Shown here piece by piece: positions 17,874 through 37,504 of a stretch of 64,000 nt of DNA. Location: positions 4,256-68,255 of the forward strand of contig CAZUVH010000006.1 of the NCBI GenBank assembly GCA_964623775.1, read 5' to 3'. This DNA comes from an uncultured Candidatus Saccharibacteria bacterium (GTDB lineage Bacteria; Patescibacteriota; Minisyncoccia; Phycocordibacterales; UBA2100). Below the pieces are notes generated by a model, which ran no database searches, was not told where the DNA came from, and saw nothing but the letters and a program-made list of their open reading frames with translations. The number at the start of each line of letters is the position of its first letter. The stretch's first letter is position 1. The position numbers were made by a program, and so were the translations under genes.

Positions 17874-19769
17874 TTACAGATTGCGATTGATCAATTTTTT
17901 AAACCTCGGATGTTTTAGGTGGCGTAGAGCCTTTGTCTCAATGCCGCGGATGAGCTCTTTGGTTCCTCCATAGACGTTCGCCACTTCTTCGAGCGTGCAA
18001 TCAGGTGCAAGAGGATACTTTTCCGCCTGTTCTTGGTTTAGTGCGCCCAACATCGCAAGAAAGAGCCGCTCCGCTCCATTGTATTTTTCTAGTTCGGTAT
18101 CTGTAAGGGGCTCTCGATCGGCCTTGTGTGCCTGCTCTAAGAGCTCAACAAAATGCATAGTACGGCCCGTGGCACTCGTCCCGCGTAATTTCTTGTCCTC
18201 CATTACGCTTCGCGCACGTCTCAACAAATCATCGATCGGCTCCTTCTCGAGAGTTTCTTCCGGAAGTGAAAAATAAAATCCGCCGTTGATGAGTGCCCGA
18301 ATATCAATCGGTTTACTGGGGATTATTCCGAATCGCATACAGAGAATAAGCTCCTCTCTGGGAGGTAACTGCGATATCGCTTCGTGTAAGAGCTCTGCGC
18401 GCTCCGTCTCAAGTGTTGCGTTTTCCGACGACTCAGAAAAAAGCGGGTTTCCGTTCAGATCAATACGCTCAGGTAATGCTTCCGCAAACGATTCATCAAG
18501 TGGATCAAAGCGACTTTGTATGAAGTATGTACGTTCAAATTTATCGAGCGATGCCTCTGTGGGTGGCCAAATCATTTCCTTTTCGTGCAGTGCCGCAGCA
18601 AGAACTCTCCGGTCACGAATTCCGGCCTCTTCCAGGGGTTTTTTCAATTTGTGATACTGGGAGCGGATTGTTGATGTGTGTGCAGGAAGATGGACCACTC
18701 GTCTTTTTTCGGCTATGAATCTGCGCATCCGAGACTCGGCATACATGAGCGCGACAGTACCGAAGGTCGCCCTCCCAGGCTCCCATTTGACAAAAGCTCT
18801 CGTCAATCCCATGAGTCCCTCTTGAAATATATCGTCAGGCTGAAGATCAGAGCCGCCCTGCCTTTTCCAAACACGAGCCTGTGCTCGCAATACGAGTCCC
18901 ACGTTCATCCGCACGGCTTCTTCCAGTGCTTTTGCGTCGCCATTTTTTGCGTTTGCGTATAGTGCCTCGCGATCTTCTTTCGTAATGTGTTTGCCGGAGT
19001 GTCGCTCGTACATTTCCCCCTTATCCCAAATATATTTTTGAGGAAAGAGCGTGAGTGTGGGTAATTCGCCGAGACGCGCCTTGAATTCGGGGGAGTCGGT
19101 AATGTCGGGATTGCCGCTATCAAAAGCATCGACGATCTTCTGGAGCTCCTCATCTATTTCCCGTGGCTCGTCAGGTGCGCCATCTTGTTTTTCGGCAGGA
19201 TTACGCCGCATCGTCTCTTTTTTTGATTCTTGTGGTGGAAATGGAAAGGCGTGTGGGTCAAACCGTGGTCGCTTTGGCAGTTCGTCCAAAATCCCTTGTG
19301 CAGACTCGTCGAGTGACGCCGTCCTTTCGGGGTCGACAAGTTCGATGGTGGGATCTTCGACCGGCGCCCCCGTCGGTAAGAGAGGAGTTTCGGGGTGCTG
19401 AATTTTTTCTTCATCCGGTATGAATCCGGCAGCCCGAAGTTTCTCCACGTCTTTTCGATGCTCAATGATGAGTAGGCCGTTTTCTTCCCAGGGAAAAATA
19501 CCGAGGTCGGTTAGATTTTCAAGAATCCTATCTTTTTGCTCAGCAGATATTAAAGGGACGACAAATTCGCGTCTATCCTGACGGTACAAGCCCCTGCTTG
19601 TAGCACCGGTTCTCGGAGCATTTCTAAATTCTTCCTGGAGATTGAGGACTGCCTGTCGCACCGCCTCAAAGTCTCCCTGGATCACCTCTGCCAGTTCTTC
19701 GAAATCAATCGTTCTATTCTTTTCGGCACCGCCTTCATTTGTTTTACTCAATGCGATCCGCTCCTTCAT
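17874..19769 (-). CDS. RNA polymerase sigma factor, sigma-70 family (RpoD-like) with a long N-terminal extension
   Basis: Region 2 DIFQEGLMGLTRAFVKWEP and region 4 LTLEEVANVYGGTKELIRGIETKALRHLKHP align to RpoD. Confidence 0.75.
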   Translation of the reverse strand: MKERIALSKTNEGGAEKNRTIDFEELAEVIQGDFEAVRQAVLNLQEEFRNAPRTGATSRGLYRQDRREFVVPLISAEQKDRILENLTDLGIFPWEENGLLIIEHRKDVEKLRAAGFIPDEEKIQHPETPLLPTGAPVEDPTIELVDPERTASLDESAQGILDELPKRPRFDPHAFPFPPQESKKETMRRNPAEKQDGAPDEPREIDEELQKIVDAFDSGNPDITDSPEFKARLGELPTLTLFPQKYIWDKGEMYERHSGKHITKEDREALYANAKNGDAKALEEAVRMNVGLVLRAQARVWKRQGGSDLQPDDIFQEGLMGLTRAFVKWEPGRATFGTVALMYAESRMRRFIAEKRRVVHLPAHTSTIRSQYHKLKKPLEEAGIRDRRVLAAALHEKEMIWPPTEASLDKFERTYFIQSRFDPLDESFAEALPERIDLNGNPLFSESSENATLETERAELLHEAISQLPPREELILCMRFGIIPSKPIDIRALINGGFYFSLPEETLEKEPIDDLLRRARSVMEDKKLRGTSATGRTMHFVELLEQAHKADREPLTDTELEKYNGAERLFLAMLGALNQEQAEKYPLAPDCTLEEVANVYGGTKELIRGIETKALRHLKHPRFKKLINRNL

Positions 19770-20519: not shown

Positions 20520-20525
20520 AACAAA

Positions 20526-20556
20526 GCACCTGGGAAAACCCCAGGTGCTTCCTTTG
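20526..20556. terminator. Bidirectional hairpin terminator between gene 19788..20519 (plus) and tRNA-Asp (minus)
   Basis: GCACCTGGG-AAAAC-CCCAGGTGC with a T-rich tract on both strands. Confidence 0.55.
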
Positions 20557-20843
20557 CGCGAGTGACGGGACTCGAACCCGCAGCCTCTTCCGTGCACGTT
20601 ATCCGCTATTTTCATAGTGGCATGGACTATATCTTCACCATAGAAGGAAATTCCGTAGGTGCTCCGGTATCTAGTCTCTACGGCGCCCCCAACTTAATTC
20701 AGAAGGGGTTCCCTCGGTATTCGCATATCCGTCAGATTGACGAACTTAGCCTTCACCGATATCCCAGAGAGTTTCAATCGGCCTTTTCGACAGAAAGCTG
20801 CACATCTACAGGGAAGTGCTCTAACCAATTGAGCTACACCCGC
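20557..20843 (-). tRNA. tRNA-Asp (GUC) interrupted by a group I intron in the anticodon loop; no encoded CCA
   Basis: Exon 1 20843..20808 (GCGGGTGTAGCTCAATTGGTTAGAGCACTTCCCTGT) and exon 2 20594..20557 (CACGGAAGAGGCTGCGGGTTCGAGTCCCGTCACTCGCG) splice to an anticodon loop CUGUCAC and a T-arm identical to E. coli tRNA-Asp. G73, C38 and G10 all fit Asp identity. Confidence 0.75.
20595..20807 (-). other. Group I intron (about 213 nt, IC3-like) inside tRNA-Asp
   Basis: 5' splice site after U and a terminal G; P7-like GTAGAGACTAGA..GAAGATATAGTCC closely resembles the Azoarcus and Tetrahymena P7 and guanosine-binding-site sequences. Confidence 0.7.
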
Positions 20844-21535
20844 ATTTGATACAGAGTCTGCATCGCCCTCTTGAATATACGACGTTTTCGAGGCAAGCAG
20901 AGGTCTGTAGCAGCCACATTATGATACATGAGTCTATAGAGTGCAAGGCTGTCGCGATGACTAAGTATCAGTTCGAACCCACTGCGATTACTTTTTTTCA
21001 CAATAAATCCCTTCTTAATCCCGTGTGTCTTCAGGGCATTATGTAACCCGACAAGGAAAGTATTACTTCCAGAAATGAAACGTGAAGAAAATACCCATCT
21101 TTCTTTGTCTCGATCTTTTGCCCAATGTTTTTTGAAATATACATTGCCATCCCCGTCAAAGTAGCCACGCACAAAATCACCGATATACTCGGCGGGAACC
21201 GGAGGAAAAAGTATTATTTTTGATTTATTTTGCGAAAATCCACGAGCTTTCAAGTCCGCGAACATCTTTAAGCTACCGAATTGTATCCGGTATGCGGGCT
21301 TCCACTTCTCATTCATCTCATTTAGTTTTCTCACTCCAATGCGATGGCTCGATTTAAATGCATTACGAACGTGCGTGATCAGGATCTTGTCGGTGCTGTG
21401 GAATTCAATAAAATGTGCGCCGCGATTATTTTTGATCATTGCTCCGTCCGCGGCAAAATAGCCGAGCACATATGCCATCCGAGACGACCAGGTGCTAAAA
21501 AAATCGTGATCAACTTCTTTAAAAACAGGTGCCAC
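20834..21535 (-). CDS. LAGLIDADG homing endonuclease (double-motif), free-standing; its last 10 nt overlap the tRNA-Asp 5' end
   Basis: Motifs YVLGYFAADGAMI and VRGYFDGDGNVY; the stop codon TAG sits inside the tRNA acceptor-stem sequence GCGGGTGTAG. Confidence 0.8.
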   Translation of the reverse strand: MAPVFKEVDHDFFSTWSSRMAYVLGYFAADGAMIKNNRGAHFIEFHSTDKILITHVRNAFKSSHRIGVRKLNEMNEKWKPAYRIQFGSLKMFADLKARGFSQNKSKIILFPPVPAEYIGDFVRGYFDGDGNVYFKKHWAKDRDKERWVFSSRFISGSNTFLVGLHNALKTHGIKKGFIVKKSNRSGFELILSHRDSLALYRLMYHNVAATDLCLPRKRRIFKRAMQTLYQMRV

Positions 21536-21610: not shown

Positions 21611-22171
21611 ATGTCAGAAAAGCACAGTATTAATCTGAAGATAGGGGGTGAAAAGCCCATGTCGACACCAGAGCAGCAAAATACTCTTGAAGTGAAGAAG
21701 GTTACCCACGAAGAATTTCCCAAATTGGCGCGTCAGATCCGGGGCCTCGGCCGCAACGCACTTGATACCCATGAAGGAACGGGATTTTCCGAACGAGAGG
21801 AAGACGTACAAGATCTTGATCGTAAGTATTTGGAAGCCGCCAAACATGGCGATTTGTATGTGGGGGTAAAGAACGATGTCGTGATCGCGTTTGTCGCCCT
21901 CAAGAAAACAGGGGATGGGGCGGGGAAGAAAGCGATCATCGAGCAGATACGGTATGCGGCGGGTATGCACAGGCCGGATCGAATTGTTGGAGATATTCTT
22001 ATGCACATAAAGTCCGATCTCGAACACAAGGGGATTTACCATACTGAGATCGAGACGGAGGGCGGACACCACAATCTCGACAATGTAGAAGGGGCGGCGT
22101 GGTTTCAAAAAATGTTTGAGATCACGGATTCAAAGGCGGCAAATGCGCACGATCTCGATGCGCACGTGTAG
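21611..22171 (+). CDS. Hypothetical protein (possibly GNAT-like)
   Basis: 186-aa ORF with no firm motif. Confidence 0.35.
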   Translation: MSEKHSINLKIGGEKPMSTPEQQNTLEVKKVTHEEFPKLARQIRGLGRNALDTHEGTGFSEREEDVQDLDRKYLEAAKHGDLYVGVKNDVVIAFVALKKTGDGAGKKAIIEQIRYAAGMHRPDRIVGDILMHIKSDLEHKGIYHTEIETEGGHHNLDNVEGAAWFQKMFEITDSKAANAHDLDAHV

Positions 22172-22871: not shown

Positions 22872-23468
22872 ATGTTATCGAAGGATGCATTGGAGGAGCT
22901 TTACTTACAAAAAAGACTGCCGGTATCGTTCATAGCTAGTCGATTAAAATGCTCGGAAGGCAAGATAAATTACTGGCTTGCCGAGTATAAAATTCAAAAA
23001 CGAACGATCAGCGACGCCATATACAACAAATGGAATCCGCTGGGAGACCCTTTCTCAATAAAGAAACCAAGAACGATTGAGCAGGCCATCCTTTACGGTA
23101 TCGGAATCGGACTGTACTGGGGTGAGGGCACGAAAAGTAATAAAGTCTCAGTCCGACTAGGTAACACCGATCCGCGACTGATAAAAAAATTCATTCAATT
23201 TCTAACAAACATATATCAGATCGATAAAAGGAAGCTACACTTCGGGCTGCAGATTTTTTCAGACATGAACGCCGATGTGGCACTTGATTTCTGGACATCC
23301 GCATTAAAAATTTCTCGGAAACAATTCTACAAAGTAATCGTTACTCCGTATCGCGGGGTAGGGAACTATCGCCAGAAAACAAAACACGGTGTTCTTACGG
23401 TTTACTTCAACAACAGAAAATTGCGTGATATTATCTGCCATGCCATCGAAGAACAATCGATGAGCTAA
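22872..23468 (+). CDS. LAGLIDADG-like (single-motif) homing endonuclease or maturase with an N-terminal helix-turn-helix; stop abuts the tRNA-Thr 5' end
   Basis: AILYGIGIGLYWGEGTK fits the G-L-x-x-x-[DE]-G LAGLIDADG pattern; the stop TAA at 23466..23468 lies immediately before tRNA nucleotide 1 at 23469. Confidence 0.55.
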   Translation: MLSKDALEELYLQKRLPVSFIASRLKCSEGKINYWLAEYKIQKRTISDAIYNKWNPLGDPFSIKKPRTIEQAILYGIGIGLYWGEGTKSNKVSVRLGNTDPRLIKKFIQFLTNIYQIDKRKLHFGLQIFSDMNADVALDFWTSALKISRKQFYKVIVTPYRGVGNYRQKTKHGVLTVYFNNRKLRDIICHAIEEQSMS

Positions 23469-23726
23469 GCCGACGTAGCTCAGTTGGTAGAGCACGTCCT
23501 TGGTAAAGAAAATTGCCCGCTGGTGGAGCAATCTACCAGATGTAACTCGAATAACGGTTAAAGGCCTCCCGGAGGTTCAGACCGTGGCGAATCGACCGGA
23601 TTCGCCCGAACGACTGACAAGAGCGACTCACGTAGTCGAATATACAGTCTAATCCTCTGATAATTCATAAACAGAGGTAGGAAATGAAGGACGAGGTCAC
23701 CGGTTCAATCCCGGTCGTCGGCTCCA
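23469..23726 (+). tRNA. tRNA-Thr (GGU) interrupted by a group I intron; CCA encoded
   Basis: Exon 1 23469..23504 (GCCGACGTAGCTCAGTTGGTAGAGCACGTCCTTGGT) and exon 2 23687..23726 (AAGGACGAGGTCACCGGTTCAATCCCGGTCGTCGGCTCCA) give an anticodon loop UUGGUAA and a perfect acceptor stem. Confidence 0.75.
23505..23686 (+). other. Small group I-like intron (about 182 nt) in tRNA-Thr(GGU)
   Basis: 5' splice site after U36 and a terminal G at 23686; internal GACTG..CAGTC (P7-like) and CGACTCACGTAGTCG hairpins. Less clearly conserved than the tRNA-Asp intron. Confidence 0.55.
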
Positions 23727-23781
23727 AATGCTAGGGCTATATGCAGGCCACTTTAAAAAATTAAAGTGGTATGATGTTACG

Positions 23782-24267
23782 ATGAACGCAAAGAAGCCCA
23801 GGACCCCGTGTCGCAATTGTGGTAAAGAGCCTTATCGTTCATACTACAAATACTGCAGCAACGTGTGTCAGATCGAATACCAATTCACACTCTATATCGC
23901 AAGATGGAAAAGAGGAGAGGTGAGCGGTTTGCAGACTATCGGTACTGTCTCGCCGCATCTCAAAAGATACCTTCGTCAGAAATTTGGAAACAAGTGTTGT
24001 TTATGCGGATGGGCCGCTGTCAATAAAAAAACCGGCCTCGTTCCGCTTGTTGCCGATCATATAGATGGAGATTGGCGAAACAATATCGAGGATAATCTAA
24101 GGCTCTTGTGCCCCAATTGTGATTCACTCAGTCCCACCTTTGCAGCTTTGAACAAAGGTAACGGAAGAAAGAACCGGGCAGTAAGTAATCGCGTCAAAGA
24201 AGGTCGTATGCTGATTGAAAAACAACGCATTAAGAGAAAGATCCGCGTATTACCGTATTCTGTTTGA
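23782..24267 (+). CDS. HNH endonuclease
   Basis: CCLCGW..ADHIDGDWRNNIEDNLRLLCPNCDS is an HNH/His-Me finger motif; the alternative start at 23728 would abut the tRNA 3' end. Confidence 0.7.
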   Translation: MNAKKPRTPCRNCGKEPYRSYYKYCSNVCQIEYQFTLYIARWKRGEVSGLQTIGTVSPHLKRYLRQKFGNKCCLCGWAAVNKKTGLVPLVADHIDGDWRNNIEDNLRLLCPNCDSLSPTFAALNKGNGRKNRAVSNRVKEGRMLIEKQRIKRKIRVLPYSV

Positions 24268-24304: not shown

Positions 24305-24377
24305 GCCGCCTTAGCTCAGTTGGTAGAGCACAGCTTTCGTAAAGCTGGGGTCCGGAGTTCGATCCTCCGAGGCGGCT
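24305..24377 (+). tRNA. tRNA-Thr (CGU)
   Basis: GCCGCCTTAGCTCAGTTGGTAGAGCACAGCTTTCGTAAAGCTGGGGTCCGGAGTTCGATCCTCCGAGGCGGCT folds as a canonical cloverleaf; only CA follows the discriminator. Confidence 0.8.
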
Positions 24378-24396
24378 CAGGTTATACTTAACAACC

Positions 24397-36295: not shown

Positions 36296-37504
36296 TTATA
36301 ACTCACCGTTCTTTATGCGTCTGCGCACCTGCGCTGCAAGTGCATTGAAGTAAAAGAGATTGTGAAAGGTCGCGAGTTTCATGCCGGTCAGTTCGTGGCC
36401 GCGCATAAGATGTGATACATATGCGCGAGAATAATTTTTGCATACATCGCATCTACAATTCGGATCGAGGGGTTTGTCCAAATCCTTCAAATATTTTTTA
36501 TCAGCGATCTGCACGCGGCCTTTTGAGGTAAAGATAGTGCCCCGACGCGCGTAGTGCGTGGGTGCGATGCAATCGAAGGTGTCACCGCCGCTTTGCGCGA
36601 TGATTGCAAAATCCTCCGGATGTCCGATGCCGAGCACGTGACGCGGCTTTCCGTAGGGGAGGGTGTCGGAAACTGCGCTCACGACTTTCTTGAGTGATTT
36701 CTTGTCATATCCAAATTCTCCGCCAAAACCAAAACCGTCAAAATCCATCGCGCCGATAATGCCGGCGCTTTCAAGTCGCATTTCGATCGAACCGCCGCCC
36801 TGGACGATTCCGTAGAGTGCCTGCTTTTTATTTGTCTTTGCATCGAGGCACTCCTGCGCCCATCGGTGCGTCGTATCGATCGACTTACGCATGTACTCCG
36901 GCGTGGCAAGCGGCGAAGGGCATTCGTCGAAGGCAAAGATAATATCCGCACCGAGCGCCTCCTGGATCTTGATCGACTCTTTTGGTCCTAAGAAAAGTTC
37001 TTTACCATCGATGGGAGAGCGGAATTTCACACCGTGTTCGGTGATCTTCACTGATTTTGGCTGCGAGCCCTCGATGACTCTCTTGTCTTGCTCGTGGCGG
37101 AGCACTTTCCCGACGCCGTGGTCAGTGCCGAATCCGAGGGAAAACACCTGGAATCCACCCGAATCAGTCATGAGTGGCTTTTTCCACCCCATGAATCCGT
37201 GAATGCCGCCCGCTTTTTTTACGATTTTCTCTCCTGGAGTTACGTGGAGGTGGAAGGTGTTGCATATCAAGACCTGCGCGCCGATGTCGTGAATTTCCGA
37301 GGTATCGAGCGTGCGGATCGTGGCACGTGTCGCTACGGGTACAAATGCTGGTGTCTCGATCTCGCCATGGGGCGTTGATATCACACCGAGCCTGGCCCGA
37401 CTCTTCTTGGATTTCTTTAATATCTTAAAGTTGAACATTTGGACGATTGTACTTGTTTTATGGAGATTGAATAGAGGTCCATTTTCGGGTATCTTTAGCT
37501 TCAT
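36296..37504 (-). CDS. tgt: Queuine tRNA-ribosyltransferase
   Basis: TPAFVPVATRATIRTL, QGGGS, and the Zn motif CxCxxC..H (CRCDVCKNYSRAYVSHL). The true start may be the internal M at MFNFK (37435). Confidence 0.85.
   Translation of the reverse strand: MKLKIPENGPLFNLHKTSTIVQMFNFKILKKSKKSRARLGVISTPHGEIETPAFVPVATRATIRTLDTSEIHDIGAQVLICNTFHLHVTPGEKIVKKAGGIHGFMGWKKPLMTDSGGFQVFSLGFGTDHGVGKVLRHEQDKRVIEGSQPKSVKITEHGVKFRSPIDGKELFLGPKESIKIQEALGADIIFAFDECPSPLATPEYMRKSIDTTHRWAQECLDAKTNKKQALYGIVQGGGSIEMRLESAGIIGAMDFDGFGFGGEFGYDKKSLKKVVSAVSDTLPYGKPRHVLGIGHPEDFAIIAQSGGDTFDCIAPTHYARRGTIFTSKGRVQIADKKYLKDLDKPLDPNCRCDVCKNYSRAYVSHLMRGHELTGMKLATFHNLFYFNALAAQVRRRIKNGEL

Follow-up and report, generated by a model that had tools for sequence, protein, structure and literature searches.

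Why should an endonuclease gene lie pressed against the 5' end of a tRNA gene, outside the intron by which that tRNA gene is split? The question is raised by a 64,000-nucleotide stretch of the Patescibacteria contig CAZUVH010000006.1 (the window, whose own positions are used here). Its minus strand carries a tRNA-Asp(GUC) gene interrupted by a small group I intron and, directly upstream and overlapping it, a gene for a LAGLIDADG protein, HEG1. The address of the HEG1 family is the 5' boundary of tRNA-Asp, throughout the candidate phyla radiation (CPR, or Patescibacteria) and irrespective of the intron. We therefore read the locus, with a probability of about 0.6, as two separate selfish elements settled on one essential gene: a self-splicing intron, and an intron-independent HEG1 that homes.

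HEG1 is a free-standing open reading frame (ORF) of 233 amino acids with a GTG start, at 20834..21535 on the minus strand. Its two LAGLIDADG motifs, YVLGYFAADGAM and FVRGYFDGDGNV, occupy residues 22-33 and 121-132, and the protein matches Pfam LAGLIDADG_3 (PF14528) with 36.8 bits against a cut-off of 22.5. The catalytic aspartates D30 and D129 are invariant in a family alignment of 23 sequences, and a profile built from these 23 members matches the archaeal intron enzyme I-Tsp061I over both domains (E=9e-5). The AlphaFold2 model (pLDDT 89.5, pTM 0.87) runs through alpha-beta-beta-alpha-beta-beta-alpha twice, and the best solved structure found for it by Foldseek is again I-Tsp061I (E=4.6e-10, TM 0.63/0.71). 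At E<=0.001 the structure search matched 124 solved chains; each of the 50 listed is a LAGLIDADG endonuclease, a maturase or the endonuclease domain of an intein, and I-Tsp061I, I-AniI, I-DmoI and I-OnuI each match at E<=1e-7. Distant relatives in phage records (22-30% identity) bear the annotation of an endonuclease or of a mobile intron protein. By its architecture and catalytic residues HEG1 is predicted to be a monomeric LAGLIDADG endonuclease, and it would be expected to cleave DNA. Its base composition is foreign-like and AT-rich beside the neighbouring host genes, with a GC content of 43% (50-56% in host housekeeping genes) and a third-position GC content of 44% (59-68%). The public record of the protein (P0001; window 20837-21535, minus strand) has 214 amino acids and begins at Met20, losing an N-terminal FFxxW segment; because this segment is conserved in the family, we favour the GTG start at 21535.

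The overlap between HEG1 and the tRNA is 10 nucleotides long (20834..20843, minus strand) and comprises tRNA nucleotides 1-10. The final codons, M-R-V-stop, are read from aTG CGG GTG TAG, and the TAG (20836..20834) is U8-A9-G10 of the tRNA. The initial annotation, made by a model from the sequence, had placed this stop codon in the acceptor stem; it does lie inside the tRNA, but just beyond the 7-nucleotide acceptor strand.

That annotation had also called a free-standing endonuclease gene abutting an intron-containing tRNA unusual; for the HEG1 family a place against tRNA-Asp is the rule. The family has at least 2498 homologues, of CPR type wherever a source is named. A scan with one genome per species gave 80 homologue loci with 37-57% identity to HEG1, and in 78 of them tRNA-Asp(GUC) begins at or within the end of the ORF; one of the two exceptions is broken by a contig end and the other has no tRNA call. 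Counts over 81 loci refer to the species-representative loci together with L001, L003, L004 and the window. On this basis the stop codon falls inside tRNA-Asp at 57 of 81 loci, with all three reading frames in use. The overlap measures 10 nucleotides at 30 loci, 15 at 14 and 23 at 7, and these classes are simply the three frames read to their first in-frame stop, at U8-A9-G10, at position 13-15 or at a UAG in the D-loop. The other 24 loci have a stop of their own, 1-110 nucleotides upstream of the tRNA. Since the C-terminus is translated from the tRNA acceptor strand, the family shows a conserved terminal MR[AVSLP]. Where enough flanking sequence was available, a tRNA-Met on the same strand stood within 400 nucleotides upstream of the ORF at 50 of 80 loci, so HEG1 occupies the spacer between tRNA-Met and tRNA-Asp. 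Distant relatives from viral contigs (25-38% identity) served as a control, and tRNA-Asp lay downstream of 0 of 80.

Two further observations concern this tRNA cluster. The short public contigs L002 (2782 nucleotides) and L005 (1395 nucleotides), which carry HEG1 homologues, stop 36-46 nucleotides past the ORF, inside tRNA-Asp, where polymorphism of the intron or of the allele may have broken the assembly. In several CPR genomes ARAGORN also calls tRNA-Met(CAU) genes near the tRNA-Asp cluster with anticodon-loop introns of 206-300 nucleotides and putative boundaries (L012:1625-1923, L019:929-1301 on the minus strand, L025:1171-1540 on the minus strand, L029:1626-1927 on the minus strand, L054:2041-2318, L057:2048-2392 and L066:4674-4995).

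The second element of the locus is the intron. With introns allowed, ARAGORN calls tRNA-Asp(gtc) at c[20556,20843] on the minus strand. The 5' exon (20808..20843, 36 nucleotides) ends in C32-U33-G34-U35, the 3' exon (20556..20594, 39 nucleotides) does not encode CCA, and between them lies a 213-nucleotide intron (20595..20807) that contains no ORF, follows a U, ends in G and sits at anticodon-loop position 35/36 (CCTGT|...G|CACGG). The spliced tRNA is a standard cloverleaf with anticodon loop CUGUCAC and discriminator G. The initial annotation was thus exact about the split and the size and emptiness of the intron, and the loop CUGUCAC is restored in the ARAGORN product; it was equally sound in placing a 233-residue, double-motif LAGLIDADG gene not in the intron but immediately 5' of the tRNA, on its strand and overlapping it. 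Default ARAGORN and the Rfam tRNA model both miss the split gene. A search with the Rfam group I model, which that annotation had put forward as a check, finds the fold: RF00028 (Intron_gpI) matches 20603..20805 (minus strand) over full model positions 1-253 with 42.5 bits (E=1.4e-9 in a local search, E=1.8e-7 over the whole window). A default scan is silent because this score is below the curated gathering threshold of 50 bits, a threshold shortfall that is no evidence against a group I fold. Comparison with intron-less relatives bears out the junctions. The alleles of L001 and L004 read CCTGTCACGG and match the window continuously through CCTGT|CACGG, so that both splice junctions are known to the base.

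The interruption is a real group I intron with exact junctions. All 27 homologous introns that we gathered are inserted after CCTGT, end in G before CACG, and have TGCAGC or GGCAGC at the guide position. In the window the internal guide GCAG (20798..20801) forms P1 with exon CUGU, placing a U.G pair at the splice site, and GUG immediately 5' of the guide could form P10 with CAC of the 3' exon. RNAalifold recovered P2, P3, P4, P5, P6, P8 and P9 from 22 aligned introns, with compensatory changes in 30 of 46 pairs. From this consensus and its covariation table, P3 pairs CUCUGG (20769-20764) with CCGGAG (20667-20662) and encloses the P4-P6 domain (P4/P5 at 20759-20714, P6 at 20712-20682). In the Rfam alignment the P7 pseudoknot, GACUAG (20676-20671) with UAGUC (20629-20625), brackets P3' and P8 (20661-20636). 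The P9 hairpin (CCACUAU-GAAA-AUAGCGG, 20603..20620) is seen both there and with RNAalifold, and the terminal G is at 20595. As both P7 strands are invariant in the 22 introns, covariation neither supports nor contradicts P7 itself. A P7.1/P7.2 insertion between P7 and P3' was not seen in this intron.

The class to which this intron belongs is already published. Nakagawa et al. (mSystems 2026, PMC13011429) described group I introns at 35/36 of tRNA-Asp(GUC) and tRNA-Asn(GUU) in Patescibacteria, and showed precise self-splicing in vitro of one tRNA-Asp intron at 35/36, homologous to the present one but not identical in sequence. Their covariance-model classification placed no Patescibacteria tRNA intron in class IC, and 25 of the 28 introns at 35/36 in class IA (PMC13011429). 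The likeness to the Azoarcus intron of subgroup IC3, the subgroup of the Azoarcus and Anabaena tRNA introns, that the initial annotation saw in P7 is therefore tentative.

Two of the homologous loci depart from this pattern. L058:1009-1324 and L071:1129-1465 hold tRNA-Asp introns at 35/36 of 241 and 260 nucleotides, in which the 5' guide and the 3' end from J8/7 through P7 to P9 resemble the other introns and the central core (GGTTCAGAGACTATCC...) differs, suggesting a second intron type or a recombinant. Separately, the window contains a gene for queuine tRNA-ribosyltransferase (TGT; 36296-37504, minus strand), an enzyme whose substrates include G34 of tRNA-Asp. All of U33-G34-U35 belongs to the 5' exon, a single base away from the splice site, and it could be worth knowing whether modification or splicing comes first.

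How closely do the two elements depend on each other? Only 27 of 81 HEG1-adjacent tRNA-Asp genes contain the intron, and 54 are intron-less. The 22-nucleotide anticodon-arm sequence CACCCGCCTGTCACGCGGGAGG is identical in HEG1-bearing alleles with the intron (L011, L014, L053, L059, L061) and without it (L009, L027, L076, L084). This identity makes both a maturase role and an endonuclease aimed at the intron insertion site unlikely for HEG1. Introns are spread across every major HEG1 similarity cluster; HEG1 distances do not correlate significantly with intron distances (Mantel r=0.11), whereas intron and exon distances do (r=0.54, p=0.002). These correlations, weak or null where HEG1 is concerned, weigh against strict co-mobility of HEG1 and intron. 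On our reading the intron, 36 bp from HEG1, is an optional passenger rather than its partner.

The presence and absence of HEG1 among relatives also bears on our reading. HEG-less alleles were reached through ORF2, a second LAGLIDADG-like gene of the window discussed below, and so were chosen without reference to HEG1. In all four such CPR loci (L288, L290, L291, L292) tRNA-Asp has neither HEG1 nor the intron, so that the same address is occupied at 78 of 80 loci of the family survey and vacant at these four. In three of them tRNA-Met is followed by a spacer of 118-533 nucleotides and then tRNA-Asp, and in L288 tRNA-Asp lies 63 nucleotides from a divergent gene. The HEG-less spacers gave no relic of HEG1 with tblastn and no known RNA with Rfam. 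The tRNA-Met/tRNA-Asp spacers of L290 (4351-4542) and L291 (2822-3354) share a GC-rich, hairpin-prone motif (GCGCGTRAGGACTTGCA...), with no Rfam match in L291.

L288 is collinear with the window through a 186-residue ORF, an HD gene, ORF2, both tRNA-Thr genes and TerC, and is nearer to it than L003 is (TerC 89% identical in amino acids, other tRNAs 85-95%). Its tRNA-Asp is nevertheless only 66% identical to that of the window, against 89-96% in the more distant but HEG1-bearing L003, L001 and L021. In this one three-way comparison the tRNA-Asp allele appears to track HEG1 rather than the host, as expected under co-conversion. The tRNA-Asp alleles of the window and L288 are in fact so dissimilar that no empty site could be read from a direct alignment of the two.

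Other routes to HEG-less alleles yielded little. Those sought through the conserved 234-residue GatA neighbour led to two contigs in which synteny stops short of tRNA-Asp. A metagenome scan with a tRNA-Asp T-arm and acceptor pattern retrieved only high-GC, CCA-encoding, non-CPR tRNA-Asp genes, with no endonuclease gene and no intron among them, and serves as a negative control rather than a sample of CPR alleles. Five non-CPR metagenome contigs (L097, L106, L116, L132, L157) hold lone tRNA-Asp 3' fragments that begin at the anticodon loop, reach the 3' end and lack a 5' half. They look like duplications left by genomic-island integration and are unrelated to the HEG1 locus.

The scheme that we infer from this anatomy and distribution is as follows. 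The intron would fold through P1-P10, leave the precursor by the two standard transesterification steps and restore the anticodon loop CUGUCAC. HEG1 would persist by intron-less homing: its enzyme would cut HEG-less alleles at a putative site spanning the junction of the upstream spacer with tRNA-Asp, a site that the insertion of HEG1 splits and so destroys, and repair would copy HEG1 in together with flanking tRNA-Asp sequence. The intron, 36 bp away, could ride along without being required. HEG1 and tRNA-Asp would form one transcript, from which the RNase P cut at the tRNA 5' end would strip the borrowed stop codon. Properly terminated HEG1 would then be made only from unprocessed transcripts, because RNase P removes the stop that the tRNA carries, and this could plausibly act as a built-in brake on the expression of a toxic enzyme.

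Co-transcription, which the initial annotation had also suggested, is plausible but weakly supported. A consensus scan found a promoter-like site (TCGACA-16-TATCTT, 21638..21665, minus strand) about 100 nucleotides upstream of the HEG1 start, the only one of the unit, and none on that strand between HEG1 and tRNA-Asp. A terminator-like hairpin of 13 bp with a T run (20523..20551, minus strand), itself just a pattern match, lies 4 nucleotides past the tRNA.

Several points weigh against the picture of a selfish, intron-independent HEG1. Promoter-like sites are not enriched over shuffled sequence, and the promoter and terminator calls are both pattern matches. The evidence for allele exchange at tRNA-Asp comes from the single three-way comparison above, and HEG1 and tRNA-Asp exon distances are weakly correlated (Mantel r=0.09, p=0.04). 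The unbiased sample of HEG-less alleles is small, at four loci. HEG1 similarity clusters roughly match named CPR lineages and the ORF is intact at 78 of 81 loci, a pattern that would also be expected from long vertical inheritance with selection for a role in the host. The intron is found at 27 of 81 HEG1 loci and in 3 of 95 complete Patescibacteria genomes (Fisher p=8e-8; denominator from PMC13011429), and this roughly tenfold excess hints at some linkage, the two sets differing in their taxon sampling. Finally, the homing step itself is something that we infer, with a putative target site.

The strongest rival to homing is that HEG1 has been domesticated and, having ceased to be selfish, is a vertically inherited host protein, which might bind DNA or RNA in the service of the tRNA operon or help CPR introns in general to splice. 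We consider this unlikely, though it would account for a position conserved across the phylum at 37-65% identity, for clusters that roughly follow named lineages and for an ORF that is so rarely broken (intact in 78 of 81). Co-option of LAGLIDADG proteins has precedents: the structure matches of HEG1 include I-AniI and the bI3 maturase, and the matches to ORF2 include WhiA. The catalytic aspartates, however, are usually gone from dedicated maturases and from WhiA, and in HEG1 both are invariant. A host function is also hard to square with four relatives that have an otherwise normal tRNA-Asp and no HEG1, and with the foreign-like base composition. As for a splicing helper, tRNA-Asp introns of the same class self-splice in vitro free of protein (PMC13011429), and the adjacent intron is missing at two thirds of HEG1 loci.

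A less probable alternative, which we would set below domestication, is collaborative or trans homing, in which HEG1 would attack intron-less tRNA-Asp genes where the intron inserts (the spliced-exon sequence CACTTCCCTGTCACGGAAGAGG being the candidate target), the intron would shield its own genome from the cut, and the two would spread together. The mechanism is known from phages (PMC3984707), and a free-standing endonuclease gene does stand beside a gene with an ORF-less intron both here and at the neighbouring ORF2/tRNA-Thr pair, where co-occurrence is strict. HEG1 and intron are 36 bp apart on one strand, the intron is commoner beside HEG1 than in complete genomes (27/81 vs 3/95, PMC13011429), and all four HEG1-less alleles are intron-less. 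Trans homing, however, calls for an intron in every allele that bears the endonuclease gene, and the 54 of 81 HEG1-bearing alleles that are intron-less would belong to genomes that cut themselves. The 22-nucleotide anticodon arm, identical with and without the intron, and the scatter of introns over all major HEG1 clusters, with no correlation in relatedness, point the same way. The suggestion of in-trans homing in the initial annotation is thus not supported for HEG1 and fits ORF2 and tRNA-Thr (7/7 co-occurrence).

Least credible is the in-trans maturase role that the initial annotation had offered as a further option, with HEG1 helping the adjacent intron to splice from a co-transcribed precursor: the shared strand, the apparent single transcription unit and a fold common to the bifunctional endonuclease/maturase I-AniI and the bI3 maturase would suit it, but a maturase goes with its cognate intron, whereas 54 of 81 HEG1 loci have none and an identical anticodon arm occurs with and without it, HEG1 and intron relatedness do not covary, and this class of intron self-splices in vitro (PMC13011429). 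Neither a maturase role nor homing at the intron site is therefore likely for HEG1, and we retain two independent elements, an intron and a homing HEG1, as the preferred account of tRNA-Asp.

The second tRNA of the window with a flanking endonuclease-like gene is different. ORF2 (22872..23468, plus strand) encodes 198 amino acids, with an N-terminal helix-turn-helix and a single LAGLIDADG-like domain in which the motif GLYWGEGTK is invariant. Its stop codon TAA lies flush against nucleotide 1 of tRNA-Thr(GGU) (23469..23726, plus strand; exons 23469-23504 and 23687-23726), which ARAGORN in intron mode shows to be interrupted at position 36/37 by a divergent group I intron of 182 nucleotides (23505-23686, plus strand). 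RF00028 finds nothing at this intron. From nine homologues, however, P2, P4, P5, P6, P7 (GACUG/CAGUC), P8 and P9 were recovered together with a crossing P3, with 95.9% of helix cells paired and compensatory changes in 23 of 43 pairs. None of 500 shuffles reached the observed values, and no slid register came close. The intron belongs to a class named by Nakagawa et al. (PMC13011429), the divergent group I introns by which tRNA-Thr(GGU) of Patescibacteria is split at 36/37.

Here endonuclease gene and intron do go together. The tRNA-Thr(GGU) abutting ORF2 is intron-split at all seven independent ORF2-bearing loci (the window, L073 and L288-L292), as against 3 of 18 loci without ORF2 (Fisher p=6e-4 with six ORF2-bearing loci, p=0.05 without the loci picked through ORF2). 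By analogy with the phage systems in which collaborative homing was defined (PMC3984707), strict co-occurrence of this kind is the pattern that would be expected. L003 shows the site empty of all insertions, with the HD gene, tRNA-Thr(GGU) and tRNA-Thr(CGU) following one another and no ORF2, intron or HNH gene. In the window an HNH-type ORF of 179 residues (23728..24267, plus strand; weak match to Pfam HNH_3, E=0.004) lies between the two tRNA-Thr genes, beginning 1 nucleotide past tRNA-Thr(GGU) and ending 37 nucleotides short of tRNA-Thr(CGU) (24305-24378). L291 and L006 carry homologues of it in the corresponding position, and L288 and L003 lack it. With ORF2, the intron and the HNH-type ORF, a 76-nucleotide tRNA-Thr gene therefore bears three separate insertions around or inside it.

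More distant ORF2-like ORFs were seen at seven loci, ending at or just before tRNA-Met, or tRNA-Trp in L067, with E-values of 1e-7 to 1e-19 against the ORF2 profile (L010:679-1356, L080:418-1134, L025:1661-2365, L082:1572-2258, L022:1429-2220, L042:211-951 on the minus strand, and L067:3-293). Docking at tRNA 5' ends may be a wider habit of the ORF2 protein superfamily.

All of this is set in what, judged by its gene content, is the cellular chromosome of a CPR bacterium. The window encodes LigA, GatA, CTP synthase, BipA, GlmS and TGT, and its genes have homologues in Kaiserbacteria and related Parcubacteria; because these genes are present, we rejected the idea of a phage with a tRNA array. 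Elsewhere in the window, a 631-residue sigma-70 family ORF (17874-19769, minus strand) has its regions 2 (about 298-357) and 4 (about 591-620) more than 230 residues apart and a long N-terminal extension with no domain match.

The window and about 90 related loci thus place endonuclease genes just outside a tRNA gene, 36 bp from an intron site, with one family tied to tRNA-Asp regardless of the intron and another found only with a tRNA-Thr intron. Collaborative homing has to our knowledge been demonstrated only in phages, and if these enzymes are active they would give ORF-less introns a route of mobility in cellular chromosomes. They would also be natural LAGLIDADG enzymes with tRNA gene boundaries as their targets, and their activity may explain faulty metagenome-assembled genomes and tRNA counts at these loci. 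Such counts and assemblies may go wrong because default callers miss the split genes, and two public contigs end inside tRNA-Asp. The stop codon borrowed from the tRNA, for its part, would set translation against RNase P processing.

A broader idea can be put forward tentatively, and we rate it as possible rather than probable. CPR bacteria may hold a whole class of selfish genes for endonucleases, which dock flush at tRNA 5' ends, use the tRNA edge as homing site, borrow the tRNA's stop codon, are throttled by RNase P through a non-stop message and, at least at tRNA-Thr, drive the trans-homing of ORF-less introns. Its tRNAs would be tRNA-Asp and tRNA-Thr(GGU), possibly with tRNA-Met and tRNA-Trp. 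Were this true, it would supply a mobility engine for tRNA introns considered endonuclease-less. The one systematic study of Patescibacteria tRNA introns inferred a limited mobility, most of them lacking endonuclease genes (PMC13011429), and the inference that such introns rarely move would be overturned.

How does the locus compare with known systems? The introns of Nakagawa et al. (PMC13011429) are like those of the window in phylum, tRNAs and insertion positions, and are likewise short and free of ORFs. In that work, as here, default tools and the RF00028 threshold missed genes, and RF00028 missed the tRNA-Thr introns entirely. Endonuclease genes were sought there only inside introns of more than 500 bp, and tRNA-flanking ones are not mentioned. 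In collaborative homing a free-standing endonuclease and an ORF-less intron share one site, as happens in cyanophage S-PM2 with F-CphI and the intron of psbA (Zeng, Bonocora and Shub 2009; Bonocora and Shub 2009; reviewed in PMC3984707). ORF2 resembles this in occurring only with the tRNA-Thr(GGU) intron (7/7 loci). The setting differs, being a cellular chromosome and a tRNA gene rather than a phage and a protein gene, and the target sites here are putative; HEG1 at tRNA-Asp breaks the defining prediction, with 54 of 81 alleles intron-less.

The intron-less homing of seg and mob genes in T-even phages is a close parallel to HEG1. In both, the endonuclease gene occupies a spacer flanked by conserved genes, is present or absent at one site among relatives and, tentatively for HEG1, goes with signs of exchange of the flanking marker. 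SegB even lies in the T4 tRNA gene cluster. The phage enzymes are of the GIY-YIG or HNH type, however, and HEG1 is a LAGLIDADG protein of a bacterial chromosome whose ORF, unlike theirs, is flush with a tRNA, usually reads into it and borrows its stop codon. In protein type HEG1 is nearer to the archaeal rRNA-intron enzymes I-Tsp061I (PDB 2DCH) and I-DmoI, which are monomeric, double-motif LAGLIDADG proteins of similar size; these are encoded inside the intron that they mobilise, whereas HEG1 lies outside any intron and is only about 20% identical to them. The LAGLIDADG genes in rRNA insertions of CPR bacteria (PMC11270868), a likeness drawn from their description, share with HEG1 the phylum, the superfamily and the occupation of conserved structural-RNA genes, but lie inside the rRNA genes, whereas HEG1 borders the 5' edge of a tRNA from outside. 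In the searchable literature we found nothing on endonuclease genes beside these tRNAs, and the arrangement of HEG1 and tRNA-Asp appears not to have been described before. What sets it apart from the known systems is a bacterial chromosome and the edge of a tRNA gene as the setting, a stop codon borrowed from the tRNA, and a family with thousands of members.

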